Shown here: piece after piece, positions 8,101 through 29,176 of the stretch | How the letters are laid out: the number at the start of each line of letters is the position of its first letter | Position numbering within the stretch: the first letter of the stretch is position 1 | Source: a virus | DNA: 64,000 bases | Direction: 5' to 3' (one strand) | Virus record (IMG/VR): IMGVR_UViG_3300042309_002885 | Coordinates: 1-64,000 of that record | Notes under the pieces: generated by a model | The model's input: only the letters and a program-made list of their open reading frames with translations | The model's database searches: none | Told to the model about the DNA's origin: nothing | Translations under genes and position numbers: made by a program

Positions 8101-8242
8101 ACAGCAAGAATTTGATATTCCGGAAAATATAATAATGCATCATGCAAATTGGACTGTGGGGATACAGAACAAATTAGATATGCTGCAATATGTTCGTGAA
8201 CAATATAATAATATGCAAGAGCATAAGGGAACTATATTATAA
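5120..8242 (+). CDS. Multidomain glycosyltransferase (GT25 + exostosin/GT47 + GT2 + nucleotide-diphospho-sugar transferase)
   Basis: VYCINLKRATERR/ILEDDA (GT25); FCSFVG...SKFTLCPRGYG..SFRLYEAMQLGSVPV (GT47); YDGLNQAL...LGSGD (GT2); FSDTDVQF...CTGFF...DDQ. Confidence 0.8.
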   Translation: MKNSIPVYCINLKRATERREYIQSEWIEKRNINVVFFEGYDMQYADKDTLPEPYRSNLKNVGHSLTEAIRGGYTEGRWPQQNMKLGPICCTISHCQLLERLIADNIEEAVILEDDAIPLFETREEFFNALEMCKKEMVNVEVLLLHKYSTSSCRELKVKEEKNNYKVLSEGITCTQAIYYTRQGMLDALKDASKFIAPMDWTWDISICRRGALALINKPLTKHSSGGTTYLCQSGPRMFISGSKKDSLMKLFEKYQAPHISVYPFYNTQGLTLDQHFLRFYKKNIERFDKLKYVFIPVCWTDLYCKANYLELYEELQTLITKTLIHDELNNVQYFTLTQHDDGIKQQLPLGTVIFGAGSCGVNTVHIPLICNKTITDSLVFKSLEREYKKDIFCSFVGSITHPIRETIFKRYESNEAYKFHTKTWSQQCPLEKQKEFISITRRSKFTLCPRGYGVTSFRLYEAMQLGSVPVYIYDTPHLPFSDLIDWKKICVLIHTSQVDELDNILRSISDSDYNNMLSAINDTCIKYFNIEYTFEYMLKYLEESNKVIPVEADYNDTNISLTIITALHHKDKNIGITARSIIPYLNNNFKWIIKFSKNELSEELIELANIEHITVMGNEDKSLYDGLNQALAVTTTPYFLVLGSGDTICTDVLQQLKTSVKQKPQANSFYFAVRHRVSGEVILPNMFDQIKKVQPCCHQGAIMETQKALILEGFDTRYEIASDLDLIIKYTGKYKTFFTTDTIIAEFYGEGVSERNLIESLLENQLIRHRLLRGSSVADINEIDLIINKFVSLKTFVESKQDRPLKGLDLTEPTKIYTVSSPTHDTFLPWLYTIKDVYPNIVIDVLYIDQLSESGAFYKNGWYEATLAKLEAITKILNNTDNSLFIFSDTDVQFFKPFHSIINNLLLTNDIVFQNDYDSLQCTGFFACRQTPLIKDLFNKALWLLKKRKNNISDDQVAMHEALKRFPQIKHAMLPREFFTYGSFRKKEIWSGIQQEFDIPENIIMHHANWTVGIQNKLDMLQYVREQYNNMQEHKGTIL

Positions 8243-8306
8243 TAAGGCGAAGAGAAAATAAAAAAAGTCTCTTGAAAACAGAAAACAATAGAATACAATA
8301 AGACAT

Positions 8307-8534
8307 ATGAAGAAGACATACGAAACCTGGAGCGAGTACCTCGCAAATCGCAATGCAACTAAGAACCCAAAGACCTTCAACGTCACCTTCCGTCGTACCA
8401 CGACTGGTGAGTTTGAGATCGTTGGTCATCAAGCATTCATGGAAGCCAATCAAGGCCGCACTTCCGAGTGGGTCCGCGTTGACTCCCGCGACCTTGCTCG
8501 TGCCCTCCGTAACAATGGTATCATTGTTAAGTAA
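8307..8534 (+). CDS. Small hypothetical early protein
   Basis: TTGAAA-16-TACAAT just upstream; followed by a terminator. Confidence 0.7.
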   Translation: MKKTYETWSEYLANRNATKNPKTFNVTFRRTTTGEFEIVGHQAFMEANQGRTSEWVRVDSRDLARALRNNGIIVK

Positions 8535-8554
8535 TACATAATAACCATAACTAA

Positions 8555-8586
8555 AACCTCCGAGGGCAACCTCGGAGGTTCTTTAT
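8555..8586 (+). terminator. Rho-independent terminator
   Basis: AACCTCCGAGG-GCAA-CCTCGGAGGTT followed by CTTTATT. Confidence 0.85.
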
Positions 8587-8615
8587 TGTAAAGGGAACTA
8601 TCTTATAATTATCAT

Positions 8616-8831
8616 ATGAAACCGAAATACGAAACTGCATTCATTGCTCTCATCGAAGAGCTAAACGACATTACCAAATACAACGAACAAACAATTCAAG
8701 AGGTTCTGCCTGATCAACGCTTTATCGAAGCACTTCATTATCAGATTGAGAACTCTGCTATTGAGAAGGTGATTGATCTTATTGAAGATACTCTCAAGGA
8801 GCTTGCTGAAGAACAACAATCCAAACAATAA
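8616..8831 (+). CDS. Small hypothetical protein
   Basis: Behind GGAAC motif 8594. Confidence 0.65.
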   Translation: MKPKYETAFIALIEELNDITKYNEQTIQEVLPDQRFIEALHYQIENSAIEKVIDLIEDTLKELAEEQQSKQ

Positions 8832-8832
8832 T

Positions 8833-9051
8833 ATGCAAATTAAATTTCTAAACGACGAGGCATTTAAAACAGGCTACACTCTCCTACACGGTCATAACTT
8901 CATCTTTGATACATACAAATCAGAACGCACAATGAAGTTCTTTTATTTGGAGATGCTAGAGAAGGCAGTGAGTATGCTCACATCACGCAATCTACAAGAA
9001 GGCTCTGATTATACTATTGAAGAGAGTGAGCGATTATGCGCTTTGGTTTAG
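8833..9051 (+). CDS. Small hypothetical protein
   Basis: MQIKFLN start 1 nt after the previous stop. Confidence 0.6.
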   Translation: MQIKFLNDEAFKTGYTLLHGHNFIFDTYKSERTMKFFYLEMLEKAVSMLTSRNLQEGSDYTIEESERLCALV

Positions 9052-9071
9052 TCGCTGACTAAATATAAAGG

Positions 9072-9479
9072 ATGAGGTATTATACGTTCACATACTTTCC
9101 TAAAAGCATCTCTAACAATACTATATTCTCTCTGTCGCGTACTACTAATCGAATCTATCATTCTTATGGAGAAATAAAAAAGGATATGGATCAAGATCCT
9201 TACACTCACTACTATTCCTATTCTGATTGGTTTAATAATGAAGACTTAGAAAATCAAAGTATCAATTCTGTCCCTCTTATATCAGCTGAAACAGGTAAAG
9301 TTTATAATTATAAAATTGTTATAAGAGAAGATCACCCTGCATTTAACTTTGAAGAGTTTGTGTTTTATTTTAAGAGCTTGAAAGGTTCTACTTTTACTAC
9401 AGATAGAAAATTAGATTTAACTGCTAAATTAAAAGATAATGTTCTCAAAAGATTGCTTTTAGAAGTTGATGTTGTGTAG
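9072..9479 (+). CDS. MRY...PExHPLFN paralog family member 1
   Basis: MRYYTF...REDHPAFN; GACTAAATA at 9057. Confidence 0.8.
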   Translation: MRYYTFTYFPKSISNNTIFSLSRTTNRIYHSYGEIKKDMDQDPYTHYYSYSDWFNNEDLENQSINSVPLISAETGKVYNYKIVIREDHPAFNFEEFVFYFKSLKGSTFTTDRKLDLTAKLKDNVLKRLLLEVDVV

Positions 9480-9496
9480 TAGACTAAATATAAAGG

Positions 9497-9919
9497 ATGA
9501 GGTATTATACGTTCACATATCGTCCAAAAAGTATCTCTAATAGAACTATATTTTCTTTGTGGTATGATGAAAAGGTGTATCGTTCTTACGATGAAATAAA
9601 AGTAGATATGAATACAGATCTTGAAGAAGGACACTATAGTATCCCAGACCGTCTCTACTTTTCTGATTGGCTGAATAATGAAGACTTAGAAAATCAAAGT
9701 ATCAATTCTGCTGCTCTTAAATCATCAGAAAATAATAATATACTATCGTATAAAATTGTTATAAGAGAAGATCACCCTGCATTTAACTTTGAAGAGTTTG
9801 TGCTAAATTTTAAAAGCTTGAGAGATTCTAGTTTAACAGCAGATAGAGGATTAGAACTAGCTGGTGAGCTAAAAGATAATGTTCTCGAGCGATTGCTTTT
9901 AGAAGTTGATGTTGTGTAA
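9497..9919 (+). CDS. MRY...PExHPLFN paralog family member 2 (recent duplicate of member 1)
   Basis: MRYYTF...REDHPAFN; GACTAAATA at 9482. Confidence 0.8.
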   Translation: MRYYTFTYRPKSISNRTIFSLWYDEKVYRSYDEIKVDMNTDLEEGHYSIPDRLYFSDWLNNEDLENQSINSAALKSSENNNILSYKIVIREDHPAFNFEEFVLNFKSLRDSSLTADRGLELAGELKDNVLERLLLEVDVV

Positions 9920-9936
9920 TAGACTAAATATAGTAT

Positions 9937-10284
9937 ATGCGATATAGGGCAGTAGAAATAAAAAGATATCCTGACAGGTATGAGTATGGAGATATTACCG
10001 ATGATAATACTGCTTTAGATAGTATAGAGGAGTGGGATAACGATTATTGGCATTGGGAAAATTCTAAAGACCCTAATGTAAGATATTACGATGAAGAGCC
10101 TGGTGAATCATATGATGATGAGGATGAGGATGATAAATATGATATGAGAACTACGGCAATGATTCTAGAAACTAGTCCTATATTTAATTTGTTCCCTTTC
10201 GCTGAATGGCAATTACAATTTCCACCTGGATCAAAGACCTTTGAGTTAAGAGAGTTAATGCTTAAAAAAATAAAGGTAATATGA
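9937..10284 (+). CDS. MRY...PExHPLFN paralog family member 3 (divergent, acidic)
   Basis: MRYRAV...LETSPIFN; GACTAAATA at 9922. Confidence 0.7.
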   Translation: MRYRAVEIKRYPDRYEYGDITDDNTALDSIEEWDNDYWHWENSKDPNVRYYDEEPGESYDDEDEDDKYDMRTTAMILETSPIFNLFPFAEWQLQFPPGSKTFELRELMLKKIKVI

Positions 10285-10308
10285 TAGGAACTCTGTTATA
10301 ATCAGAGT

Positions 10309-10482
10309 ATGAACAAAACGAACCAAGGTTGGGAGGCACCACAAGCTAAGACAATTAAATCTGTTGATGTCTCTAGGGTTGTATACAAACTAGAGACAAA
10401 GAAAAATCCTTATCTTAGACCTCCTAGCTATCGCAAACAAAAGTCTGTCTCTCTTTTCGGAACTAACTCAGAATGTTACTAG
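10309..10482 (+). CDS. Small basic hypothetical protein
   Basis: Below track threshold; behind GGAAC motif 10287. Confidence 0.55.
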   Translation: MNKTNQGWEAPQAKTIKSVDVSRVVYKLETKKNPYLRPPSYRKQKSVSLFGTNSECY

Positions 10483-10483
10483 T

Positions 10484-10630
10484 ATGCCAACACTTCTTAC
10501 AAAATTATTTAATAACCGTAAAGCTAAAAAACCAATCTACGGGTGGTCTATATTTGCAATGGATGACAAGATTCAACTGACTAGGCGAGTAGCAGAAGAA
10601 CAAAGAAAGCAAGCATTACAGTTGCACTAA
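10484..10630 (+). CDS. Small hypothetical protein
   Basis: Below track threshold; MPTLLTKLFNNRK...QALQLH. Confidence 0.45.
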   Translation: MPTLLTKLFNNRKAKKPIYGWSIFAMDDKIQLTRRVAEEQRKQALQLH

Positions 10631-10654
10631 TACTAACACAAAATAATTATTTAA

Positions 10655-10951
10655 ATGGATACAACAATCACAATCTTCAAGGCCATCGCAGCTTTCTCGG
10701 TAATCTTCTCAGTGCTCTTCGTTGCGGTAAGGACATATGCTTGTTACATCCGTAAGTCAAAAAGATGCTCAGAGGGATGTGCATGCAAGGCTGTTAACGA
10801 TCAGATCACCGATAGCGTGACCGTTGAGAAGCCAAAGCGTAAGCAAGTGAAGAAGAGAGTAAAGGCTATCGAGGACGGTAAGCTAGTGTTCGAGAAGGTT
10901 AGTGAGCTTCCTGCTAAGAAGAAGCCAGGTCGTAAGAGGAAGGAACTCTGA
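10655..10951 (+). CDS. Membrane-anchored basic protein
   Basis: N-terminal TM, VNDQITDSVT segment, K/R-rich tail ending KEL inside the next promoter. Confidence 0.7.
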   Translation: MDTTITIFKAIAAFSVIFSVLFVAVRTYACYIRKSKRCSEGCACKAVNDQITDSVTVEKPKRKQVKKRVKAIEDGKLVFEKVSELPAKKKPGRKRKEL

Positions 10952-10963
10952 TATAATCATAGT

Positions 10964-11281
10964 ATGAATAGAATAGACTCTCTTAGAGAGATCATCGACC
11001 AACGCATGGCCGAGCTCATGCAAGAGATCGAGACTTTGCAAAAAGAAAATCAACGACTGCGTGAAGGCTTTCAAGGAGCGTGTTATGCATGCGAACCCGT
11101 AGCAGAACTCAATATAAAGCTCGTTGAAAGAGGACATGCACTCTATCGAGCACTTGCATACTTTACGGATAGTTTCTCTTCCTTTATGGATGAAGACGGC
11201 TTTTCACAGGAGAAGAAAGCAGTAGAAGATTGGAAGGAACTCTTTGATAATAATATACCCGAACAGAACTATGAAGATTAG
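10964..11281 (+). CDS. Small coiled-coil protein with CxxC
   Basis: Behind GGAAC motif 10942; ACYACEP. Confidence 0.65.
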   Translation: MNRIDSLREIIDQRMAELMQEIETLQKENQRLREGFQGACYACEPVAELNIKLVERGHALYRALAYFTDSFSSFMDEDGFSQEKKAVEDWKELFDNNIPEQNYED

Positions 11282-11660
11282 AATTGACAACATCGGAGCA
11301 AAGAGCCCTGTTTATATCGGTAAGCCTCCTGCTAATGCGCACCATATACTCGATATAGTACAATACTATCCGTGTAAGTATTATGGTAAGCTAGAAGAGT
11401 ATCTCAATGATGGCTGGGAAGATTGTGGTAATGGCGTCATAAGAAAGGATAACTATACTATAGGCAAATCTTGTTTTTCTAATGAAGAGGTATGCAATTC
11501 AATTGCTCAAATAGAATGGAATCCTAAAGAGGATTGTACTGAGCTCTCAACCATTGGCGAACGAGTGCTCAATCTCTCTAAGCGAGATCGCGATACTTTC
11601 TTTGAGGTTTATGAAATTGCAGCTAGGAAACTAGCTGAGACTTATAGTGATGAGGACTAA
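11271..11660 (+). CDS. Hypothetical protein
   Basis: MKIRIDN start overlapping the previous gene. Confidence 0.65.
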   Translation: MKIRIDNIGAKSPVYIGKPPANAHHILDIVQYYPCKYYGKLEEYLNDGWEDCGNGVIRKDNYTIGKSCFSNEEVCNSIAQIEWNPKEDCTELSTIGERVLNLSKRDRDTFFEVYEIAARKLAETYSDED

Positions 11661-11664
11661 AATT

Positions 11665-11925
11665 ATGGCAACGTATCGAATAATTAAAAGGAGGTTAGGA
11701 GTTGATAGCAAAGAGATCTATCATGTAGAGAGAAAGGTTCTCTGCTTCTGGTTTGACATACTTAATAACTCCTTTATATTTGGCATTGACGATGTTGCTA
11801 ATTATAAAAGTTGGTTTAATTCTAAAGAAGAAGCTTTGGCAATCATCGATAAGTTGATGCAGCCTAAGAAAAAGAGAAAAGAAGTTGTTTGGACAAACGA
11901 CCCTCAACCAAAAATGAACTATTAA
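11665..11925 (+). CDS. Hypothetical protein
   Basis: MATYRIIK...FNSKEEAL. Confidence 0.65.
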   Translation: MATYRIIKRRLGVDSKEIYHVERKVLCFWFDILNNSFIFGIDDVANYKSWFNSKEEALAIIDKLMQPKKKRKEVVWTNDPQPKMNY

Positions 11926-11928
11926 ATT

Positions 11929-12042
11929 ATGAGTACAGCTATAATCATTATGTGGATAGCAATAATAGTTTTAGCATCTCTGGCAACATTTGCAGTATGT
12001 TATATCATTTATAAAGCTAGTGATGAAGATTTTTGGTATTAA
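11929..12042 (+). CDS. Single-TM peptide
   Basis: Below track threshold; MSTAIIIMWIAIIVLASL...DEDFWY. Confidence 0.5.
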   Translation: MSTAIIIMWIAIIVLASLATFAVCYIIYKASDEDFWY

Positions 12043-12063
12043 GGAACTCTAATATAATAGGGT

Positions 12064-12252
12064 ATGACGAAAGTTAAAAACAACCGGGTTGTAAAGTATA
12101 TTGTGACTTGGACTTTTGAGTCAACCCGAAAAGAAGAAGAGTTTGAAGAACAAGATCTCGCTGAATCTTGGTACGAAACAAAACTAGAAACAGGTAAGAA
12201 TCCATCTCTGTATGTGACAGAACTTGTGGAAAGTACAAGGCAGCTGAAGTAA
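12064..12252 (+). CDS. Small hypothetical protein (paralog of 18092)
   Basis: Behind GGAAC motif 12043. Confidence 0.65.
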   Translation: MTKVKNNRVVKYIVTWTFESTRKEEEFEEQDLAESWYETKLETGKNPSLYVTELVESTRQLK

Positions 12253-12274
12253 GGAACTCTAATATAATAAACGT

Positions 12275-12754
12275 ATGGGACTTGACATGTATATATTTAA
12301 AGTTAAGAAGACTGCTCACTCCATTAAAGAGCTGAGCGATCTTAATCGCAATCCGCAACCTGGACAGCCAGAAGTTGCGGAGTTTGAACCATTGCAGCGC
12401 CCGTATGAAGATACGTGTCCTGATTATTACTCAATCTTCCAAGAGGTTGCATACTGGCGTAAGTTTAATGCACTGCATCAGTGGTTTGTTACAACTGTTC
12501 AGCTAGGTATTGATAAATGCGATCTTTATGAACTAGATAAAGATATTCTTTTTGAACTGTTAGAGATTCTTGAGGATGTTTACCATCTTAAGAATCCTAG
12601 TAAGCTGCCTCCCACACAAGGATTCTTTTGGGGATCAACTGAAGTAGACGACTACTATTGGGATAAAGTAGAGCGCAGTATTCAAACTATTTCTAAACTT
12701 ATCGACAACACTGATTGGAATAAAGAACGTCTCTTCTATCAATCATCTTGGTAA
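12275..12754 (+). CDS. Conserved phage hypothetical protein (MGLDMY type)
   Basis: MGLDMY...EVAYWRKFNALHQWF...GFFWGS...FYQSSW. Confidence 0.75.
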   Translation: MGLDMYIFKVKKTAHSIKELSDLNRNPQPGQPEVAEFEPLQRPYEDTCPDYYSIFQEVAYWRKFNALHQWFVTTVQLGIDKCDLYELDKDILFELLEILEDVYHLKNPSKLPPTQGFFWGSTEVDDYYWDKVERSIQTISKLIDNTDWNKERLFYQSSW

Positions 12755-12755
12755 T

Positions 12756-13055
12756 ATGAAACTAACACTAGAACAACTAACAAAGCTCCTTGAAGAATAT
12801 AAAGAGCTTAGCGATGCATGCGATGCAGCTAGAGCAGCTGGGTGTCTTGAAATTGAAGGGCGACTGCAAAATGCTATTTGGTCCTCAATAGAGACAGTCA
12901 TTAGCTTCTTTGATCCAGAAGGATGGATCATGTGGCACATTTTAGAGAATGAATATGGCGCTAAGGAGTATGAAGCTGGCTACGGTAGCAATATGAAGAA
13001 GATCAAAACTCCAGAAGATCTTCTCTGGCTTATGAATGTTCACACACAAGACTAA
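12756..13055 (+). CDS. Hypothetical protein
   Basis: In-operon ORF. Confidence 0.65.
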   Translation: MKLTLEQLTKLLEEYKELSDACDAARAAGCLEIEGRLQNAIWSSIETVISFFDPEGWIMWHILENEYGAKEYEAGYGSNMKKIKTPEDLLWLMNVHTQD

Positions 13056-13068
13056 ACAACACAAAAAT

Positions 13069-13314
13069 ATGGAAGTAAAATTTGATCGCGTAGAAGACGG
13101 TATGGTTCAATACAAATGTACCGATACAGATGGAAGGGTATATGGCGTAGCTGATACAATTCAGGAGGGAATGATTATGGAGACACTAGTCATTGATATG
13201 GATACATATGATGAGGTAGAAGATAGCGAGCTATTCAAACGCATTGTGACAGCGCGAGCGCTTTATCTTGCTGATAGCTATGAGGTTCTCGAAGCTATGA
13301 AGGAACTCTATTAA
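13069..13314 (+). CDS. Acidic hypothetical protein
   Basis: MEVKFD start; ends inside GGAAC motif 13302. Confidence 0.6.
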   Translation: MEVKFDRVEDGMVQYKCTDTDGRVYGVADTIQEGMIMETLVIDMDTYDEVEDSELFKRIVTARALYLADSYEVLEAMKELY

Positions 13315-13323
13315 AATAAAGCA

Positions 13324-13521
13324 ATGCTATATAACGTTATTGTTGTTATCTTACTAATCGTTCATACTGCTCTGTGTCTACTAGTTGGATTTTACAGCGG
13401 TGAAAAGCATACGCATCGCGAAGCATATGAGAATGGTCTTATGACTATCGAGCGTGTTGAAGACAAACGAAACTATCGCTGGATTGAGACACATAAACTT
13501 GGCTACGACTATGACGAATAA
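13324..13521 (+). CDS. Small membrane protein
   Basis: N-terminal TM; behind GGAAC motif 13302. Confidence 0.6.
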   Translation: MLYNVIVVILLIVHTALCLLVGFYSGEKHTHREAYENGLMTIERVEDKRNYRWIETHKLGYDYDE

Positions 13522-13522
13522 T

Positions 13523-13678
13523 ATGACACCATATGAGCGACGAGTAAGAGAATTGGAAGAGGAGGGCCTCACTACATCTGATGCACAATCAGTTGCTGAT
13601 GTGGAGTTTGAATTGCTTCCAGCATACGACGACTATCATAAAATTGTTGAACGAACTCTACCTCGTTGTGATTATTAG
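13523..13678 (+). CDS. Small acidic phage protein
   Basis: MTPYERRVRELEEEGLTTSDAQSVADVE. Confidence 0.6.
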   Translation: MTPYERRVRELEEEGLTTSDAQSVADVEFELLPAYDDYHKIVERTLPRCDY

Positions 13679-14073
13679 TAATCACTCTGATCTGGTTCTA
13701 GATATCTGAAGAGAGTAGGCACGTCTGTTATAATTTCAGAAGAATATTCTACAAGATCATGAGCTTGCTGTAGGTCCGCTGGTTGATTATAGAGCCAATT
13801 TTTAGCTGCTTTTTTATCTTCTGATACTATAGCACCTTTGAACTGGTTGTCTGCAAAGTTAACCAGAGCTGTATATTTATTATTTGTATATACAGTAAAC
13901 CCATTGCGATTAAACTGCCAGCTGTCTACTAACTTATAACCTCCGTTACTTAATTTTATATCAAGTTGATTGCCTATTCTATTTTGATTGAAGGTTTCAC
14001 TGTTTTTAGTTGGTTGTTGAACAGTTTCATAAGCTTCAGCTATTAAATTCTGATCTTTCTTAGGTAGTCTCAT
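13675..14073 (-). CDS. Late protein, candidate internal head protein
   Basis: Start MRLPKKDQNLIAEAYE at 14073, just after ATAAATA. Confidence 0.6.
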   Translation of the reverse strand: MRLPKKDQNLIAEAYETVQQPTKNSETFNQNRIGNQLDIKLSNGGYKLVDSWQFNRNGFTVYTNNKYTALVNFADNQFKGAIVSEDKKAAKNWLYNQPADLQQAHDLVEYSSEIITDVPTLFRYLEPDQSDY

Positions 14074-14126
14074 ATGTTTATTTATTCTCCAGCACATAAA
14101 AAGATGGAACTTTAATACAATAAGAT

Positions 14127-14549
14127 ATGTCAGCAATACTAGAAGAAGTCTTGGACGATATGCACGATATCGAATACAAGAAGCTCTGCAATCTCACAGA
14201 TGAGCTCATTGAGAGCGATAAGAAGCTTGTTGAGTTCTCTATCTTCAGAGATGTCAGCAGTAATATCGATAACTGGATTATCTCTGCACCAGATATTACC
14301 TCGACAAACCCAATCATTAACGGCGAGGTTGTGTTCTTTAGTGATTACTGGCGCCTGACCGACCATCTCAAACCACACAGTAGAGAGATTGTATCGCGCG
14401 TCTATACTAATCCAACCTGGAAAGATATTATCAACGCAGCAAACGAGATGGTTGAGAGTACTTGTCAGTGCTCGCTATTCCTTGAAGGTCTAGCACCGCG
14501 GGGTGTTGCTAACGGTATTAAGCGCATTGAGATTGAATTCGGTTCATAA
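14127..14549 (+). CDS. Hypothetical protein
   Basis: Behind GGAAC motif 14106. Confidence 0.7.
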   Translation: MSAILEEVLDDMHDIEYKKLCNLTDELIESDKKLVEFSIFRDVSSNIDNWIISAPDITSTNPIINGEVVFFSDYWRLTDHLKPHSREIVSRVYTNPTWKDIINAANEMVESTCQCSLFLEGLAPRGVANGIKRIEIEFGS

Positions 14550-14565
14550 TGACTAAATATATGTG

Positions 14566-15000
14566 GTGAGACGAAATAAAAAACATACTAAAATAAGATA
14601 TACCGGCTTATTTTTAGGTAACGATCACGAGGTTCAGAACATCTGGTCTCACGAGGAGCTAGATTATTATTCTAAAAACATCAACCCTCTAACTGAGGAA
14701 GATTTAGTAAGTGTTAGTGATGAAGGTCTTAGAGCATATAAGAATGTAAACAATTATAGTATAATGTATGTAAATGGTAAGAGAGAGCTTGGTCCTATTA
14801 TAACTATACCTGAACCGCATCCATTGTTTAATTGTCATTACATTTACAGCGAGGAAGAATTTGACTTTGGAAGAATGCAGGGCGTTACCAAAGATCACCC
14901 AATAAATGATGCTATTGAAGTAATTATGGATCAAGTTGGTCCGTTTTTTGATAGTATTGAATATGTAGATGTAACCAATAGATACACTGAAGAGCAATGA
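14566..15000 (+). CDS. MRY...PExHPLFN paralog family member 4
   Basis: GTG AGA start (MRRNKK)...IPEPHPLFN; GACTAAATA at 14551. Confidence 0.75.
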   Translation: MRRNKKHTKIRYTGLFLGNDHEVQNIWSHEELDYYSKNINPLTEEDLVSVSDEGLRAYKNVNNYSIMYVNGKRELGPIITIPEPHPLFNCHYIYSEEEFDFGRMQGVTKDHPINDAIEVIMDQVGPFFDSIEYVDVTNRYTEEQ

Positions 15001-22390: not shown

Positions 22391-22412
22391 GGAACTTCAT
22401 TACAATAACGAC

Positions 22413-22667: not shown

Positions 22668-22679
22668 TATACTAACGAC

Positions 22680-22880
22680 ATGACTGCTAAAGAGATAGAC
22701 AGTATGACACCAGAAGAGCTTGAGCAGGTAGCTTACATGCTCACTCCTGAAGAGAATGAACTCTGGGCCTTTTGGGGCTATGATGGACGTACCTATGAGC
22801 TTATCATGGTTGGGCGTCAATCAAAAGCGAATATAGCTGAGAGTTACAGAAAGGAATTAGAAGGAACTCTGATATACTAA
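22680..22880 (+). CDS. Small hypothetical protein
   Basis: Behind motif 22658. Confidence 0.6.
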   Translation: MTAKEIDSMTPEELEQVAYMLTPEENELWAFWGYDGRTYELIMVGRQSKANIAESYRKELEGTLIY

Positions 22881-22884
22881 CGAC

Positions 22885-23004
22885 ATGCACCACGAAGACG
22901 ATATGTTACCGATACTGGCCTTGATCCTGATGTTCTGGTCTGTCTGTTTATTCATGACTGTCTTCACCACTGTTAAAGCCATCACTGAGTACTTCCTCGG
23001 TTAA
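22885..23004 (+). CDS. Single-TM peptide
   Basis: Below track threshold; behind motif 22863. Confidence 0.5.
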   Translation: MHHEDDMLPILALILMFWSVCLFMTVFTTVKAITEYFLG

Positions 23005-23026
23005 GGAACTCCATTACAATAACGAC

Positions 23027-23194
23027 ATGATCAACACCGCCGATAAGCTGAATGCTCTGATGAAGCGAGTCTACGATCTCGAGGACCTCTTCGAGACTGC
23101 TAAAGCAGAAGACGATCGCTGGACCGCTAACATGTGCTTGCTCGAGCTCGATGAGATCAACGCAACGCTAGATAAACTCGAAAGGGAACACTGA
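23027..23194 (+). CDS. Small helical protein (shares its core with 19446)
   Basis: Below track threshold; FETAKAEDDRWTANMC; behind motif 23005. Confidence 0.6.
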   Translation: MINTADKLNALMKRVYDLEDLFETAKAEDDRWTANMCLLELDEINATLDKLEREH

Positions 23195-23206
23195 TATACT
23201 AACGGT

Positions 23207-23452
23207 ATGCAAGACGATCCGCAAGATAAACTACTCGACATTCTGCAAACTGAAGGCGTCATTGACCTTGATATCTTTGACAATCTAGTAGATGAGATGC
23301 TCATTAAGCATCATGACTATACTATAGACGATGTTGAGAATATGACGAATGAAGATGTACTTGAGATAGTTCAAGAGATTTTCGGTATGAAGTTGAGTGA
23401 AGAAGACAATAAAGTCTACTTGCTTGAGTATAGTAACGCATTCACAGCTTAA
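23207..23452 (+). CDS. Small acidic hypothetical protein
   Basis: Behind motif 23185. Confidence 0.65.
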   Translation: MQDDPQDKLLDILQTEGVIDLDIFDNLVDEMLIKHHDYTIDDVENMTNEDVLEIVQEIFGMKLSEEDNKVYLLEYSNAFTA

Positions 23453-23475
23453 GGGAACTCTTTTATACTAGCGAC

Positions 23476-23673
23476 ATGAAGAAACTATATTCGATTGTAT
23501 TTCACAATGATGAATGCTATACGGAAGCAATGGCATTAAGCGACATTCACACCTATAACGATGCCGATGCTGCAGAGATTGAGCTTTTCTGGAACAGCAA
23601 ACGTAAACGTGACAACGCGGTTCGTCTTCTTAAGCAGAATGACATTACTGTAGACACCTATGACTTCAATTAA
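23476..23673 (+). CDS. Small hypothetical protein (paralog of 24621)
   Basis: Behind motif 23454. Confidence 0.65.
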   Translation: MKKLYSIVFHNDECYTEAMALSDIHTYNDADAAEIELFWNSKRKRDNAVRLLKQNDITVDTYDFN

Positions 23674-23762
23674 AGGAACACTGATACAATAAGGCATCGC
23701 AAGAAGCGATAACAAACAACAAAACAAACAATCCACCAAAGGAACACCAATAGAATAAGACA

Positions 23763-24140
23763 ATGACCAAATACACATTCAAGACCATCGTTGCCCCAGA
23801 AGCAGTCCGCGCTGAATTCACCGCTCTTCGCGATCAGCTCAACTCATCAGATAAGGAACTTATGCAAGCGTTCTGGAACATCGCCATTGATCGTCTCGAT
23901 GACATCAAGAAGGAAGTAGAGATGCTTCAAGCCTCTACTGCTCAAGCGCGCGCTGAGAAGCAAGAGATCAAAGCTGCTGCTAAGCTGAAGAAGGCTCCTA
24001 AAGCTAAGAAAGAGAAGAAGGTCACTAAGGTAGCCGCCAAGAAGGCTCCAAAGAAGAAAGCTGAGAAAGCTAGTAAGGTTACTAAGGTTGTCGATGATGA
24101 TGGCGATATTGAGACAGTAGTGGTGGACTGCTCTCGATGA
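23763..24140 (+). CDS. Protein with histone-H1-like Lys/Ala-rich tail
   Basis: KKAPKAKKEKKVTKVAAKKAPKKKAEK; behind motif 23741. Confidence 0.7.
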   Translation: MTKYTFKTIVAPEAVRAEFTALRDQLNSSDKELMQAFWNIAIDRLDDIKKEVEMLQASTAQARAEKQEIKAAAKLKKAPKAKKEKKVTKVAAKKAPKKKAEKASKVTKVVDDDGDIETVVVDCSR

Positions 24141-24203
24141 GTGAAGGAGCTGAGCATCTCTCAAAACTGCTCGTCCCTTTTAGGAACTCAAATACAATAA
24201 GGT

Positions 24204-24359
24204 ATGCACAAAGTAACCGTTTACTCTAACTGGGAGAAGACCTCAGTGCATGAGTTTGAAACACTAGAGGAAGCTGAGCTGTTCGCTGAGAACATGAAGC
24301 ACAACCAATACTCTGTACTCATCGATGAGATCGATGAAGAGACTGATGAGGAACTCTGA
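24204..24359 (+). CDS. Small acidic hypothetical protein
   Basis: Below track threshold; behind motif 24183; ends EEL. Confidence 0.55.
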   Translation: MHKVTVYSNWEKTSVHEFETLEEAELFAENMKHNQYSVLIDEIDEETDEEL

Positions 24360-24373
24360 TACAATAAGACATC

Positions 24374-24598
24374 ATGAAACTACTGCCCATCACATTCATC
24401 GCCCTGACCGTTGTACTCACTGCCATCTCAGTCTTCTGGGCTGATTGGATCATCAGAGAGCTCTACGATAAAGACATCAACAACTGGTTGATCCTCGCTG
24501 GTGTGATCGTTACCTCGCTCTGCATCCCAAGAGCACTGAGCGGTATCCTTACACTCGCGATGGTTGTAGCTTCATTCTACATCCTATTCATCCGCTAA
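24374..24598 (+). CDS. Small multi-TM membrane protein
   Basis: Hydrophobic segments; behind motif 24350. Confidence 0.65.
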   Translation: MKLLPITFIALTVVLTAISVFWADWIIRELYDKDINNWLILAGVIVTSLCIPRALSGILTLAMVVASFYILFIR

Positions 24599-24620
24599 AG
24601 GAACACCAATACAATAAGGT

Positions 24621-24821
24621 ATGACCGAAATGGAATACTTCATCACCTTCAACAGCGAAGAAGACTTTATCAAAGCTAGTGAGATGACATCCATTCTTCT
24701 TCCAGACGACTTCAACAAAGGAGGTCTTGAAATGCTTTGGAATCAAGAATGGTATCGCAACCAAGCCGTTCACGAGCTAAGTAAGATCGGTATCGAGGTT
24801 GATACCTATGAGCTGGATTAA
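24621..24821 (+). CDS. Small hypothetical protein (paralog of 23476)
   Basis: Behind motif 24600. Confidence 0.65.
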   Translation: MTEMEYFITFNSEEDFIKASEMTSILLPDDFNKGGLEMLWNQEWYRNQAVHELSKIGIEVDTYELD

Positions 24822-24845
24822 GGAACACCAATACAATAAGACATC

Positions 24846-25037
24846 ATGCACGTCCAACCAACCAACAACAACTACCTCGCAGGCTATCTCGAACAATCCT
24901 TCAAGACCTTCCATCATGTACTCGAACGAGAGGCTATCATCAAGTGGAACAGTCCAGAGTATAAGAAGGTAATGGACTTGATCGCTAAAGAGCTTAAAAG
25001 AGCTCATGAAGCTGAACGAGAGTTTTCAAATCGGTAG
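24846..25037 (+). CDS. Small hypothetical protein
   Basis: Behind motif 24822. Confidence 0.6.
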   Translation: MHVQPTNNNYLAGYLEQSFKTFHHVLEREAIIKWNSPEYKKVMDLIAKELKRAHEAEREFSNR

Positions 25038-25038
25038 T

Positions 25039-25280
25039 GGTGTCATGAGAGAGATCCGGGCAATAGGAGAGCGTGGGGGCTCCCTAGAGAGCCCGGGTCT
25101 CTGAGACAACGCCGCGTCTAGAGACACCCAGCGCTCCTAAATGCCTCCTATGGAGAGAGGTTTAGAAACAAAAGAGTAGCCATGTCTCCAAAAATTTTTT
25201 GCTATATCCTCTGAGACTCCAATAAGCGCAGTTCCTCGGAAATTTTTTTTGCGCGGATTCTAAGACTTCTATATAGGGGT
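25039..25280. other. GC-rich structured non-coding region
   Basis: Long hairpin 25051-25101, enclosing GGTGTC/GACACC stem, two AAAnTTTTTT-GC tracts near 25190 and 25240. Confidence 0.55.
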
Positions 25281-25297
25281 CTGACTAAATAAGATGA

Positions 25298-25642
25298 GTG
25301 AGATATAAGAAATATAATGTAGATTTAGGAGACATTACTAAGTCTAATGTTCTTCCTGATCTTTCAAGCATTCATAATAATCTTTTAGAAGATAACGAGT
25401 ACCTTAGAAAAGAAACAATGCTTGATGGTATAGTCTTATACAGAGCTAGAAATCCGTTTAGTAAACTTATTAGTATGAACTTACCAGAAAATCATCCTGC
25501 GTTTAATTTTGATATTAGTGTATCGTCTTGCTTTAAGCGTTATTTTCAGCCATCTACAAGAGATATAGAGAGACACGGAGATATAAGAGATCTTTTATTT
25601 AGATACATAGTACATCCTTTATTCAATAGCCTTAAAAAATGA
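25298..25642 (+). CDS. MRY...PExHPLFN paralog family member 15
   Basis: MRYKKY...LPENHPAFN; GACTAAATA at 25283. Confidence 0.8.
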   Translation: MRYKKYNVDLGDITKSNVLPDLSSIHNNLLEDNEYLRKETMLDGIVLYRARNPFSKLISMNLPENHPAFNFDISVSSCFKRYFQPSTRDIERHGDIRDLLFRYIVHPLFNSLKK

Positions 25643-25675
25643 GGCATCCATATAAGGCGACTAAATATAGAGGTA

Positions 25676-26140
25676 GTGAGGTATAAACAAACACATATAG
25701 ACTTTAACAAAAAAACCATAGCACCTGCAATCTTAGTAAGACGTTCTATAAATGACAGGTCGGGAGTTATGGTAGTTGGTGAGGATGGTAGGGTTATTCT
25801 TCCTAGAGATACTAGTAATATGGTTAATACTAGGCCATACTGCTTAACTAGAATGCCACAAAGTACTGATAAGCCTATAGAAACAGAATATAGGTATTTA
25901 AACCATAAACACTATGCTACTAGTTTTAAGATAGAAGACGGTTTATACTTCGATTATCTAGAAGGAATGTTTGAAGAAGAAAATGATGGTTATCTTTATG
26001 CAGCTGAATATCATCCTCTCTTTAATGTAGATGTGTTGGAGGAGCTTCATAGCAGCGAAGGTTTAGAAGTATATCCTTCTGTACGTCGTCTGATAAATAA
26101 GATAGATAAGATCAAAAGTAGTATAGACAATGAGATATAA
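25676..26140 (+). CDS. MRY...PExHPLFN paralog family member 16
   Basis: MRYKQT...AAEYHPLFN; GACTAAATA at 25659. Confidence 0.8.
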   Translation: MRYKQTHIDFNKKTIAPAILVRRSINDRSGVMVVGEDGRVILPRDTSNMVNTRPYCLTRMPQSTDKPIETEYRYLNHKHYATSFKIEDGLYFDYLEGMFEEENDGYLYAAEYHPLFNVDVLEELHSSEGLEVYPSVRRLINKIDKIKSSIDNEI

Positions 26141-26603
26141 AGCTTATATAATTGGAGAAGATTTCGGTCCAGATTGGTTAGTATATTATGAGACTGAGAT
26201 TGCTGTTCCAAGCCGTGGTGGTGGTATATATACAGTAGATGGTAGCGGTCATGTAATAAATTATAGAGATGATGGTTTTAGGCCTTATCCTTATTGTCTG
26301 GATAATATGTTCAAGAGAAAGTATCCAGATAAAATAAGAGCTAGAAATGGTTATGGAATGAAGGTTGATTGTTATAGATTAGATGATGGTATATTTTTCG
26401 ATAATAATAATGAAGAGTTTAATGACTATACCGTCTATATACCAGAGACGCATCCTCTCTTTAATTTATCGTTCTTCGATCTTCCACACACAATTGATAA
26501 CTTAGTACCTGATTATACAACAGCTAAGATAGCCGGTGAGTTGTGGCATAGTGTATCTGATCCTATTACGAATAAGATAGGTGACGCAGTACAACCTTCT
26601 TAA
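26130..26603 (+). CDS. MRY...PExHPLFN paralog family member 17
   Basis: MRYKAY...IPETHPLFN. Confidence 0.8.
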   Translation: MRYKAYIIGEDFGPDWLVYYETEIAVPSRGGGIYTVDGSGHVINYRDDGFRPYPYCLDNMFKRKYPDKIRARNGYGMKVDCYRLDDGIFFDNNNEEFNDYTVYIPETHPLFNLSFFDLPHTIDNLVPDYTTAKIAGELWHSVSDPITNKIGDAVQPS

Positions 26604-26612
26604 TCTAAGACT

Positions 26613-27278
26613 ATGATTAACACTCTTGTAATATCTGATATTCACTTAGGATCATCGGTATGTGATAGAGATAAGGTTCTTCAGATATTATCAACTCCCT
26701 TTAAGACTCTAATTATAAACGGAGATCTCTTTGACAATCACTCATTTAAGAGATACAATAAGAAGGATTGGAAGATCTTATCTAAGATACGTAAGCTATC
26801 AAAGACACACAGTGTGATATTAGTTAAGGGTAATCACGATGGATGTGCTGATTTCTTAGCAGCTATCACTGGTATGGAGTTCGTATCAGAGTATTCTTTT
26901 ACTATCGATAATATGAAGTATCACTGCGAGCACGGTGACGCTTACGATCACTGGATCAAATATAAACCAATCTCCACATTTATCTTTACAGGCATCTATT
27001 ACTGGATACAGAAATTCGATAAGAGACATATTATTACACGGAGGTTAAAAGCATGGTCTAAGTCATGGGTAAAGGCTAAAGATCTAGTATCTCGAAGATT
27101 CCTAGACAAGAGAGGCGGTTCGTACGATGTGCTCATAGCTGGACACACCCACTACCCAGAGACTATTTATTCACGAGCGGCATGCTGCTATTATGTGAAT
27201 ACCGGATCGTTCTGCGATGAGCGGTGCTCTTATGTAGTAATAAGTGATGATGGCTCTTTTGATTTGAAATATATCTGA
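26613..27278 (+). CDS. Calcineurin-like metallophosphoesterase (LpxH/UDP-2,3-diacylglucosamine hydrolase-like)
   Basis: SDIHLG, NGDLFD, GNHD, EHGD, GHTH motifs. Confidence 0.85.
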   Translation: MINTLVISDIHLGSSVCDRDKVLQILSTPFKTLIINGDLFDNHSFKRYNKKDWKILSKIRKLSKTHSVILVKGNHDGCADFLAAITGMEFVSEYSFTIDNMKYHCEHGDAYDHWIKYKPISTFIFTGIYYWIQKFDKRHIITRRLKAWSKSWVKAKDLVSRRFLDKRGGSYDVLIAGHTHYPETIYSRAACCYYVNTGSFCDERCSYVVISDDGSFDLKYI

Positions 27279-27291
27279 CTAAATATAGAAA

Positions 27292-27666
27292 GTGAGATAT
27301 AAATTATATTCATATCATCAGTCTGCTCCTAGGAGCAGACTTTATCCGAATTCAGGTTCGGTTAAGAGTAAAGATGAAATAGACGGCTTTGGTATAGAGG
27401 ATGATATATTTGTAAACACAATAGTATATGAAGGTAAAGTTGTTCCTGATACGCTTCGTATTAGTATGCCCGAGAATCATCCTTTGTTTAATATAAATAT
27501 AGCTTATACAATACCTAAACATACAAGAGGTGAAGTTAATGTTCAATTTCAACAATTTCAAAAAGATGTGAGTCATATGATAACGCCGTTCACTAATATG
27601 CTAGACAAAGTAATAAAAGACAAACAACATCATATTAGAGCATTAGATATAACAAATGAGATATAA
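27292..27666 (+). CDS. MRY...PExHPLFN paralog family member 18
   Basis: MRYKLY...MPENHPLFN; GACTAAATA at 27277. Confidence 0.8.
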   Translation: MRYKLYSYHQSAPRSRLYPNSGSVKSKDEIDGFGIEDDIFVNTIVYEGKVVPDTLRISMPENHPLFNINIAYTIPKHTRGEVNVQFQQFQKDVSHMITPFTNMLDKVIKDKQHHIRALDITNEI

Positions 27667-28015
27667 ATTATATTCTGGTTTTTTAAGACATACGGATGCT
27701 GGGCCTAAACTCTTTGCGTATATTAATAATATTAAGAAAAAGCGCAATGTATCAGGTATACACGTTATAGATGGAGTATTTGCTATTAGTGATATGTCTC
27801 GAGGAGGGAGAATAGTGCCTACTGATCTTAAAGTTTATGTACCTGAAAGTCATCCCTTATTTAATTTTAATCTTACCTTTGAAGTATACCGCACAAGCAA
27901 AGTACCTGCTCCTGATTTTAGAAAATATGAGATAAAAATACGTCAAGTTGTAGATCCGCTTTTCAATAAACTTTTAGAAATAACAAAAAACGGTACCGAG
28001 CGTATAGGTCGTTAA
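27656..28015 (+). CDS. MRY...PExHPLFN paralog family member 19
   Basis: MRYKLY...VPESHPLFN. Confidence 0.8.
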   Translation: MRYKLYSGFLRHTDAGPKLFAYINNIKKKRNVSGIHVIDGVFAISDMSRGGRIVPTDLKVYVPESHPLFNFNLTFEVYRTSKVPAPDFRKYEIKIRQVVDPLFNKLLEITKNGTERIGR

Positions 28016-28030
28016 GACTAAATATAGAAA

Positions 28031-28393
28031 GTGAGATATTCGGTGTATGTATATTATCCAATGATGAGTAGCGGCAGGAGTCTTTATGTAAAGAATCCAA
28101 CTAATAATATGCGGAATGAAGAAAAAATAACAGGTATACGTACATCGGAGGGTATATATTTTAACTCATCGACATATGGTGGAAAGGTTCAAGCGGATTC
28201 CTACTATGTTTATATTCCTGAAAATCACCCGCTGTTTAATTACGATTTAGCCTTTCGAGCACAAACAGATACCAAGCCAAGATATACACCTGAATCACGG
28301 GCGTTTCAAAAAGTTATGGAGCGGTCAGTGGAGTCGCTTCTCGATGAGATAGATAAAGAGATAGAACAAAGGCGTAATAAGCCTAAAGCCTGA
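28031..28393 (+). CDS. MRY...PExHPLFN paralog family member 20
   Basis: MRYSVY...IPENHPLFN; GACTAAATA at 28016. Confidence 0.8.
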   Translation: MRYSVYVYYPMMSSGRSLYVKNPTNNMRNEEKITGIRTSEGIYFNSSTYGGKVQADSYYVYIPENHPLFNYDLAFRAQTDTKPRYTPESRAFQKVMERSVESLLDEIDKEIEQRRNKPKA

Positions 28394-28408
28394 GACTAAA
28401 TATAGAAA

Positions 28409-29176
28409 GTGAGAGATTATAATCTTAGAAAGATTTATGAAGGTACTACAGGTGATGAAAAGACCTATGTAGGTAATCTCACTATTGGTAAATATAAGCT
28501 TGTTAAGGATAAAGAGATTAAAGAATGTGATTACGAAAGTAATAAAAATAATAAGAAAATCATATCATCTGCTACAAAAAATAATATAGAGAAACTTAAA
28601 GAGGCTTTTAAATCTGATATAACAATTGATAAAATTTATAGAGCTGTAATTGCTACAACAAGATCAGTCTACTCAACATATATATCTGGTACTCTGAAAG
28701 GTGAGTCATTTATATGGGCTAGAATAGAAACGAATAGCGCTGGTGCTGGACAAACAAAACTATACTTTGAGGATGGATTTACAAATGCTGTTAAATTTAT
28801 AAGTTATGTATTTACACCTACAACATTAGAAAAGACATCTGAAGGTACATACCGGATACACAACCGGGTTGAAAGAATTATTACTTATTCTACTGAATAT
28901 GAGGAAGAGCAGATTGGTCCTAAACGCTTTGATATAGTTAATTATGGTCCATCAGGAGACTATCATAGGATATCTTTACCGGCTCGTTTATCTTATGCAC
29001 CTACCTCATATAATGCTCAATTTTACGAGAACGGCTGGATACGGTTTACAATATATAGCTATTTGGGAATGCATATGACTATTTCGTTTCCAGATCCTGA
29101 TTGGGGATATATAGCTAAGGACGATGGCTCAGATTATAGTTTTGATAAAATGTTTAGAGAGGATTTAAGTAAATGA
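28409..29176 (+). CDS. Late hypothetical protein, candidate internal head protein
   Basis: Same GACTAAATATAGAAAGTGAGA leader as members 18 and 20 but no HPLFN motif; N-terminus MRDYNLRKIYE. Confidence 0.7.
   Translation: MRDYNLRKIYEGTTGDEKTYVGNLTIGKYKLVKDKEIKECDYESNKNNKKIISSATKNNIEKLKEAFKSDITIDKIYRAVIATTRSVYSTYISGTLKGESFIWARIETNSAGAGQTKLYFEDGFTNAVKFISYVFTPTTLEKTSEGTYRIHNRVERIITYSTEYEEEQIGPKRFDIVNYGPSGDYHRISLPARLSYAPTSYNAQFYENGWIRFTIYSYLGMHMTISFPDPDWGYIAKDDGSDYSFDKMFREDLSK

Follow-up and report, generated by a model that had tools for sequence, protein, structure and literature searches.

In a 64,000-nucleotide stretch of viral DNA (hereafter the window), short genes follow one another closely, each headed by a promoter-like motif in which, or just before which, the preceding reading frame often stops. 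This layout raises the question of whether stop codons are built into the promoters by design, and whether the promoters serve as crossover points at which one-gene cassettes are gained, lost and reordered. The window belongs to a record of 121,925 bp (~122 kb), estimated to be 58% complete, in which Pfam matches to gp23, gp20 and gp15 indicate a T4-like phage. Cultured relatives are at most 35% identical to it, and relatives in IMG/VR are many. We read the genome as that of an uncultured, distant T4-like myovirus, and the array as its hyperplastic early region. Among 40 cassette proteins, 38 fall into no family, and the GC content of the dense core is 41–43%, versus ~36% for the genome. The features described below are collected in Table 1.

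Table 1. Coordinates of motifs, modules and cassettes in the window (early modules are given by the first G of GGAAC).
Feature	Position	Strand	Remark
GGAAC/−10 motif and tRNA genes	500..684	+	motif 500–515, 10 nt 5' of the tRNAs; tRNA-Ile 526–604, tRNA-Arg 608–684
Early module array, ~38 units	8228..24847	+	consensus tAAGGAAC(T/A)C(T/C)(G/A)ATA(T/C)AAT + 5–8 nt + ATG
Early modules, 8228–17267	8228, 8594, 10287, 10942, 11236, 12043, 12253, 13302, 14106, 16989, 17267	+	
Early modules, 17552–19905	17552, 17710, 17915, 18070, 18280, 18592, 18940, 19180, 19424, 19680, 19905	+	
Early modules, 21626–24822	21626, 21911, 22189, 22391, 22658, 22863, 23005, 23185, 23454, 23675, 23741, 24183, 24350, 24600, 24822	+	
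Dense array core	17267..25037	+	~30 one-gene units of 140–380 bp; proteins 39–125 aa, nearly all ORFans
Late-type modules	9057..29574	+	gaCTAAATA + 5–8 nt + A/GTGAG(A/G)TA (protein start M-R-Y)
Late motif starts	9059, 9484, 9924, 14553, 15351, 16279, 20097, 20449, 20757, 21090, 25285, 25661, 27279, 28018, 28396	+	
Late motif GACTAAATA before the portal gene	54633..54652	−	TAA is the gp15 stop (54644); 7 nt 5' of the portal (gp20) ATG at 54633
Intrinsic terminator	8555..8580	+	sole convincing one of the region (one in 20 kb)
TGA at motif positions 8–10, example	10949..10951	+	includes the TG of the extended −10; ends the upstream ORF
Replaced cassette body	12060..12246	+	in L131 the same two motifs enclose an unrelated ORF instead
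Indel 1, cassette	17267..17551	+	absent from L131; bounded by motifs 17267 and 17552
Indel 3, cassette	18296..18591	+	found in L172 but not in L131; junction scarless, within motif
Indel 4, cassette ORF 18962–19189 with both flanking motifs	18940..19201	+	absent from the closest relative, L131
Indel 5, two cassettes	19424..19904	+	absent at this place from L131
Indel 6, two cassettes	22658..23004	+	absent from L203; flank switch within motif/start module
Indel 7, two cassettes	23185..23674	+	absent from L203
Indel 8, cassette ORF 24621–24821	24600..24843	+	absent from L199
Orphan module	23675..23740	+	full motif, then a small hairpin, no ORF; kept in L203

About 40 copies of the early motif, tAAGGAACwCyrATAyAAT, were found on the same strand, each with 5–8 nt (mode 6) between its −10 box and an ATG. 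A search with GGAACTNNNNTATAAT, allowing up to two mismatches, returned 54 matches, nearly all on the plus strand between 500 and 24837, against 12.9 ± 3.5 in shuffled sequence. More than 118 viral stretches carry the motif, which is no commoner than by chance in 596 Gb of bacterial genome sequence, and the ATG spacing seen in the window recurs in 391 of the 539 motif instances of other viral contigs. The sequence logo contains no information upstream of the AA and classical −35/−10 matches occur at shuffle level, i.e., no −35 element was detected; a search for a Shine-Dalgarno signal found none anywhere in the phage genome. In the 27-nt module, a GGAAC box (predicted position about −22 to −18) is followed by a TATAAT-like −10, often with the TG of an extended −10, and then by the ATG, located at the expected transcription start; the 5–8 nt between −10 box and ATG would fit leaderless starts. 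Each ORFan gene probably forms a transcription unit of its own, with a leaderless mRNA. Should the mRNAs indeed lack leaders, promoter and gene form one indivisible, portable unit, which would explain the layout of one promoter per gene in a phage devoid of Shine-Dalgarno sequences.

The motif might instead act at the RNA level, as a processing site or translation enhancer on polycistronic transcripts: a genome without Shine-Dalgarno sequences needs another initiation signal, and the promoter role is a prediction from sequence. However, the perfect TATAAT, the TG at −15/−14 and the ATG at the predicted +1 are promoter features, and large late genes lack the motif. Because the motif also precedes tRNA genes, by 10 nt, it appears to be a transcription rather than a translation signal, and we regard an RNA-level role as very improbable.

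As a promoter, the early module recalls those in which the zipper of the RNA polymerase beta' subunit contacts a Z-element at −22 to −18 that can replace the −35 (Yuzenkova et al. 2011, PMC3173786). Such −10/Z promoters likewise combine a strong −10, no −35 and, at about −22 to −18, a pentamer that includes AAC (AACCT in T7 A1 and AACAT in T7 A2; here GGAAC followed by T/A and C) (PMC3173786), and the logo of the window module displays the same three traits at about the same positions. The Z consensus is loose and was defined on the two T7 promoters (PMC3173786), whereas the box in the window is invariant, with a shift of up to 2 nt depending on the alignment. The GGAAC box may be read by a zipper contact or by a phage-encoded factor, the two being equally possible. 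In either case, the modules are a small, naturally occurring type of promoter, with a −10 and a GGAAC at −20 but no −35, on which the Z-element model can be tested.

A second motif, gaCTAAATA, lies 5–8 nt upstream of A/GTG start codons. The late promoters of T4, TATAAATA, are of the gp55/gp33 type; the CTAAATA motif resembles them, includes a TAA and overlaps upstream stops, and the window phage shares with T4 a tight packing of genes with small gaps or overlaps. Unlike at T4 late promoters, the start codon here follows the motif by 5–8 nt, and leaderless late mRNAs are therefore predicted, that of the portal gene included. Late-type units (CTAAATA, 5–8 nt and a start codon) share the build of the early units. 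These modules head four clusters of an 18-member paralogous family, and indels relative to L131, L199 and L203 terminate at them.

An earlier note on this DNA had described the upstream stop as built into the next promoter. All of the 20 stop codons that it listed are correctly placed: nine ORFs end at the TGA at motif positions 8–10 (10951, 17719, 18079, 18601, 18949, 19189, 22667, 23194 and 24359), with protein tails of the form K/E/R-E-L/H, and four end at a TAA further inside the motif (8242, 13314, 17566 and 22880). Its count of about 14 stops just before the motif is matched by 13 stops lying 0–2 nt upstream of GGAAC. The late motif behaves alike, the TAA of GACTAAATA serving as the stop of two ORFs (20100 and 21093) and of gp15 on the minus strand (54644), and stops overlapping or abutting it at 20764, 27278, 28015 and 28393. 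Among 328 non-redundant motif instances from more than 100 IMG/VR contigs, upstream stops lie at −5 to −2 relative to the first G in 139 cases and at +5 to +17 in 89.

The idea of a special design, however, found no support in a comparison with genome compaction, a check that the same note had called for: the overlap is no commoner than compaction predicts. The gap from stop to ATG is at most 25 nt at 20 of 33 early junctions versus 74% of the other same-strand gene pairs, and these other genes (median gap 8 nt, 74% under 25 nt) are closer together than the motif-headed ones. Because genes are packed so closely, a 22-nt promoter directly upstream of the ATG must touch the upstream stop. The overlap of stop and promoter is an ordinary consequence of compaction. 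In a genome that packs its genes 0–25 nt apart and whose promoters must sit on the ATG, it would arise as a by-product, with upstream ORFs ending at the first motif-compatible stop.

The TGA or TAA at positions 8–10 could still be selected as a fail-safe that closes any ORF joined upstream after shuffling. Of the 12 motifs of TGA type in the window, nine provide a stop, and there is a modest association between motif variant and upstream frame: a stop-bearing variant awaits 57% of the ORFs that enter in the frame of positions 8–10, versus 30% for the other frames (OR 3.1, p = 1e-5, a statistic that treats relatives as independent of shared ancestry). Yet the TG at these positions is that of the extended −10 element, which is sufficient by itself, and the overlap frequency is that of general compaction. 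Furthermore, the motif offers stop triplets in two of three frames, the third having no built-in stop, and the built-in stop is used in 38% of stop-bearing motifs, near the one-in-three expected for random frames. An adaptive stop is therefore unlikely, and compaction remains the preferred reading of the overlap.

Cassette shuffling was assessed against IMG/VR contigs 90–97% identical to the window, all of them metagenome assemblies. The breakpoint enrichment that the earlier note had proposed to look for was found: 34 of 51 breakpoint clusters fell in motif intervals, which make up 9.3% of the sequence (p ~2e-23, relatives being treated as independent of shared ancestry). Gene junctions accounted for 42 of 50 clusters. 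In all eight cassette indels the junction is scarless and the flanks switch inside the module. Cassette blocks are also found at other positions in L098 and L172, and crossovers do not share one position, some falling in the motif, others in the spacer or the start codon. Some events are not motif-to-motif, among them a 493-nt window-specific segment ending at 13612 and an inserted early cassette that in L131 has a stop codon on one side and a late motif on the other. These comparisons suggest that in related phages single genes are added, dropped or exchanged precisely at the motifs, from which we infer recombination.

Since almost every gene boundary of the array bears a motif, breakpoints at motifs are also expected from selection for intact genes. 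Illegitimate recombination could then strike anywhere, and intergenic survivors would look motif-bound simply because the motif fills every gap, with no recombinogenic role of its own. Breakpoints do occur at 5 of 17 motif-less junctions, some indels lack two like flanking motifs, and the contrast between early-plus-late and motif-less junctions reaches only p = 0.09. Nevertheless, early junctions taken by themselves are struck more often than motif-less ones (21 of 33 versus 5 of 17, p = 0.036, under the same assumption of independence); the eight indels are all in register and switch within 16–25 bp of shared sequence, whereas random end-joining would seldom rebuild an intact module; and cassette islands and duplications are bounded by motifs. 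We consider selection as the sole cause quite unlikely. For the proposal that promoters act as crossover points, the gain, loss, replacement and relocation of cassettes with junctions inside motifs stand, and location alone does not fully separate recombination from selection for intact genes.

As every sequence is a metagenomic contig, and as the L131 and L203 contigs break inside the array, repeated 20–25-mers might have caused the assemblers to skip or misjoin cassettes. But L143 and L189 agree with each other, as do L095, L107, L110 and L200; L172 supports the window order, and the shared repeat is shorter than a read. Such an artefact is exceedingly improbable.

The duplications pointed out earlier do begin and end at motifs (families D3, D6, D7, D8 and D10), and they are both tandem and dispersed. 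The 17707/19421 pair is a mosaic whose middle is 81% identical to 23042–23189, and cassette 19446–19655 combines parts of the cassettes at 17732 and 23027. Two cassettes recur at 93–97% identity in unrelated contexts, in islands of homology that begin and stop at motifs and include both flanking ones: cassette 18962–19189 is 96–97% identical at the nucleotide level in L143 and L189, where its flanks are unrelated, and cassette 24621–24821 is 93% identical in nucleotides and 95% in amino acids in other contexts in L107, L110, L095 and L200. The same arrangements were found again in independent samples. A copy of cassette 18962–19189, which is of GGAAC type, also occurs at 97% identity in record G006, within the array of a distant phage whose own units use another module, tttttCTTGCg...TAACTT + ATG.

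The ~40 same-orientation copies of the module, with 16–25 bp of identity, would act as a substrate for homology-driven recombination, by which whole units would be deleted, duplicated, inserted or replaced in register. A UvsX/RecA-type recombinase gene is present in the record, and phage machinery of the UvsX type probably drives the process. Altogether, we think it probable that leaderless module units, homology-driven shuffling and stop overlap as a by-product explain the array. More tentatively, and with some doubt, the 27-nt stop-promoter-start module might be the whole expression signal, without −35, leader, ribosome site or terminator, making the ORFans autonomous units mobile even between phage lineages with different promoter dialects. 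In that case, leaderless cassettes able to express themselves may form a common pool in the environment, with host RNA polymerase recognising them by a contact of the Z-element kind in place of sigma region 4.

The behaviour had been called integron-like without an integrase. Indeed, no match to the tyrosine integrase family PF00589, the one integrase family searched, was found in the 121,925 bp of the ~58% complete record. The comparison itself is not new, the integron analogy having been drawn explicitly for the promoter-early stem-loops (PeSLs) and the PmSLs of the T4-type phages RB49/phi1, T4/PST and KVP40/nt-1 (Arbiol et al. 2010, PMC2839356; Comeau et al. 2014, PMC4122927). Integron cassettes (intI, attI/attC, Pc) are likewise single small genes in the same orientation that are gained, lost and reordered as units. 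In integrons, however, IntI lies next to the array, attC sites form imperfect inverted repeats at the cassette ends, and promoterless cassettes run from one Pc; in the window phage no PF00589 integrase was found, the repeat is directional and promoter-like, hairpins are not enriched at the junctions, each unit carries a motif, and junction positions vary within the repeat. Were this a true integron, the motif would be the att-like target of a specialised recombinase whose gene lies elsewhere in the genome. The junctions are precise, and such an enzyme could sit in the missing part of the record or be a serine recombinase, outside the PF00589 search. Against it stand the lack of a PF00589 match in 122 kb, the clear −10 promoter features of the motif and its lack of inverted-repeat or hairpin character; the crossover moreover wanders between motif, spacer and start codon, and late motifs and the conserved ATGAGATA start act likewise. 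Site-specific recombination is hardly credible here, and homology-driven shuffling is retained.

The array is best described as the shuffling of the PeSL model in a predicted leaderless form, free of stem-loops and terminators; the mechanism would be that of PeSLs minus the stem-loop. In both systems, repeated promoter motifs separate small ORFans in the hyperplastic parts of T4-like genomes, insertion, deletion and replacement junctions between close relatives fall in the motifs, and the phage's own recombination machinery is invoked with no integrase. PeSLs carry a stable adjacent stem-loop that acts as a terminator, whereas the 45 nt upstream of 38 window motifs fold no better than controls (−5.5 versus −5.0 kcal/mol, p = 0.74). 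They combine sigma70-like −35 and −10 elements with an AT-rich upstream region, as opposed to the −10 (with TG) and GGAAC box at −22 to −18 of the window module, which has no −35 or upstream signal. A PeSL occupies intergenic space, whereas the window module abuts the ATG of a predicted leaderless transcript and often overlaps the upstream stop; unlike with PeSLs, late-promoter units also serve as junctions. Mini-circles have been shown for PeSLs. By these data, promoter-mediated modular shuffling of the PeSL type would reach into a clade of aquatic T4-like phages that is widespread and as yet uncultured, and could do without the stem-loop, a promoter alone, joined to a start codon, sufficing to mark junctions. 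Within the array, the orphan module without an ORF could be the relic of a lost cassette or encode a small RNA.

The early motif (GGAAC box and TATAAT-like -10 box, the core of a module that continues with 5-8 nt and ATG) was matched 54 times compared to 12.9 +/- 3.5 times in shuffled sequences, and is therefore highly non-random. Nearly all matches are on the + strand, between positions 500 and 24837. In the motif array (8228-28409), an ATG lies 5-8 nt (mostly 6) after the -10 hexamer in 33 of the 38 copies, and each motif-headed ORF extends into, or right up to, the next copy. The logo built from 21 copies of the window and 250 copies of relatives reads tAAGGAACTCTgATATAATAAtAgTATGA; as it carries no information further upstream, the module has no -35 or UP element, and a scan for classical -35/-10 promoters gave matches at shuffle level. 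The exact 20-mer pattern is present in more than 118 viral stretches, and the 5-6 nt spacing to the ATG is kept in 391 of 539 instances among viral contigs. In 596 Gb of bacterial genomes it occurs 17 times, always singly, which is the chance level; it thus gives no clue to the host, and the possibility that the motif is a host promoter consensus was ruled out.

The -10 hexamer is consensus, TG is frequent at -15/-14, GGAAC occupies -22 to -18 and the ATG stands at the expected +1 position. The GGAAC box resembles, from sequence alone, the Z-element in its position and AAC core; this element, located at -22 to -18 and contacted by the beta' zipper, is the published precedent for a -35-less promoter (PMC3173786). 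The early motif is also present 10 nt upstream of a tRNA-Ile/tRNA-Arg pair, which speaks for a role in transcription rather than translation. We infer that the modules are promoters producing leaderless mRNAs. No leaderless early-gene array in T4-like phages was found in the literature searched. GGAG, GAGG or AGGA precedes 6.7% of the 105 large ORFs of the whole record compared to a background of 7.7%: the genome uses no Shine-Dalgarno sequence. Positions -12 to -1 of these ORFs are depleted of G and enriched in A/T, which, together with the missing Shine-Dalgarno signal, points tentatively to a host that makes no use of such sequences. A second promoter type, also with a leaderless start, may exist, as a classical promoter-like site ends 7 nt upstream of the ATG at 8307. 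A stem-loop search upstream of the motifs revealed no hairpin excess, and one terminator was found in 20 kb. The late motif, gaCTAAATA, stands 5-8 nt before the start codon (ATG or GTG) of the genes of a paralogous family with 18 members, whose proteins begin with M-R-Y; it is also found upstream of the portal gene.

The window covers the initial 64 kb of an IMG/VR virus record of 121,925 bp and encodes T4-type gp23, gp20 and gp15 as well as a ribonucleotide reductase and many glycosyltransferases. Megablast of positions 8000-28500 against cultured phages returned no match, and tblastn with the MCP, the portal, one early gene and DpdA gave top identities of 35-48%, indicating that the phage has no cultured relative; capsid and portal proteins of cultured phages are at most ~35% identical. 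Uncultured contigs with 65-85% identity number in the hundreds. Judged by its T4-type genes and these identities, the phage is a distant, uncultured T4-like myovirus. The GGAAC motif is absent from five larger relatives (MCP identity 65-71%) and from Flavobacterium phage immuto. No family match was obtained for 38 of 40 cassette proteins.

The earlier note had proposed that the promoters double as crossover points at which one-gene cassettes are gained, lost and reordered. We compared the window with the close relatives L131 and L203 (from one sample), L199 and L172, which are blockwise 90-97% identical to it; all are assemblies, and several arrangements were seen again in independent samples. 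As proposed, breakpoints are enriched in the motifs: 34 of the 51 clustered homology breakpoints of the array fall in motif intervals, which represent 9.3% of its length (p ~2e-23), and about 7 further clusters are either no more than 10 nt away from a motif or placed at degenerate late modules. Gene junctions account for 42 of 50 clusters; breakpoints are present at 21/33 early-motif junctions, 5/13 late and 5/17 motif-less junctions (early versus none, p = 0.036). Eight cassette indels were examined at single-base resolution. In every case, the cassette-free genome keeps one intact module, whose upstream flank is that of the upstream copy and whose downstream flank is that of the downstream copy, the switch occurring within the shared 16-25 bp. 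At one site the two motifs are conserved but enclose an unrelated ORF in place of the cassette body. Duplications are bounded by motifs at both ends, as the note had said, the 17707/19421 pair being a mosaic in which a third paralogue is involved. Some events are not motif-to-motif.

Cassettes also recur in other contexts. One, missing from the closest relative, is 96-97% identical in the contigs L143 and L189, where its flanks are unrelated; homology starts at the upstream GGAAC and stops just past the downstream motif. These two motifs are the only GGAAC motifs of the 85-kb record holding L143 (G006), whose own one-gene units bear another module, CTTGCg...TAACTT then ATG; the GGAAC-type cassette is inserted into this array. 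A second cassette behaves similarly in four contigs from four samples, and one block lies, in L098 and L172, upstream of genes that it follows in the window. Since almost no intergenic gap lacks the motif, the position of the breakpoints alone is also compatible with illegitimate recombination followed by selection. Homology-driven exchange is favoured because the junctions are scarless and in register and the transferred islands are motif-bounded. A search for a tyrosine integrase was negative, in agreement with the earlier note; the record carries a RecA/UvsX-type gene.

Coordinates of features (window positions unless indicated)
Feature	Position	Observation
Classical promoter-like site	8272-8307	TTGAAA-16-TACAAT
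Late-family clusters	9072-29574	9.0-10.3, 14.5-16.9, 20.1-21.4, 25.3-29.6 kb; at least 18 small paralogues sharing a PExHPLFN core, with CTAAATA + 5-8 nt + start codon at the head of each; gain/loss between relatives at these modules
Replaced cassette body	12060-12246	
Segment missing in L131	13613-14105	493 nt; left end away from any motif; overlaps the next ORF
153-aa ORF	13675-14136	minus strand; no Pfam match
Relocated block	17936-18092	
Cassette core	18000-25000	GC 41-43% vs ~36% elsewhere in genome; A-over-T skew strong (0.12-0.24) compared with remaining genome
Split-ORF unit	18280-18601	post-motif ATG opens only a 14-codon ORF; 89-aa ORF begins 31 nt downstream in another frame; same layout in L172; may reflect a short upstream ORF or old frameshift
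Cassette shared with L143 and L189	18962-19189	
Orphan module	23675-23740	full GGAAC/-10 module, then short hairpin ATCGC-aagaa-GCGAT, no ORF; may be a small RNA or lost-cassette relic; conserved in L203
Cassette shared with four contigs	24621-24821	
Calcineurin-like metallophosphoesterase (PF00149)	26613-27278	set among late-family paralogues
RecA/UvsX-type gene	89490-90101 of record	
Other-module one-gene array	L143:4500-12185 (G006)	tttttCTTGCg, ~16 nt, TAACTT, 7-8 nt, ATG

As we read it, the shuffling proposal is the PeSL model restated, and is already known. According to that model, ORFans in the hyperplastic regions of T4-type phages are inserted, deleted and replaced by way of repeated early promoters, without integrase; mini-circles were demonstrated and the integron analogy is explicit (PMC2839356). 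It was later widened to T4/PST, KVP40/nt-1 and middle promoters (PMC4122927). The present array differs from PeSL in that it lacks a stem-loop and a -35 element, its module is fused to the start codon and overlaps upstream stops, and late-promoter units serve as junctions too.

The stop codons that the earlier note had described as built into the next promoter are all located where it had placed them relative to the motifs. That this overlap goes beyond compaction was not borne out. With upstream ORFs assigned from the chained gene list, gaps of motif-headed genes are 4-28 nt in tight cases and at most 25 nt in 20 of 33, whereas the other same-strand gene pairs of the genome are packed tighter (median gap 8 nt, 74% of gaps under 25 nt); the idea that stop overlap reflects extra compaction was therefore rejected. 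Because promoter and spacer measure 22 nt and must sit on the ATG, the module has to touch the upstream stop when genes are tightly packed. Two of the motif's frames carry a stop triplet: TGA/TAA at positions 8-10 in one, the TAA of TATAAT in the other. Among 328 instances, 38% of the stop-bearing variants are used as stops, near the one-third expected for a random frame. The motif variant is coupled to the incoming frame (OR 3.1, p = 1e-5, instances being counted irrespective of relatedness), suggesting that some dual use as promoter and stop is probably maintained.
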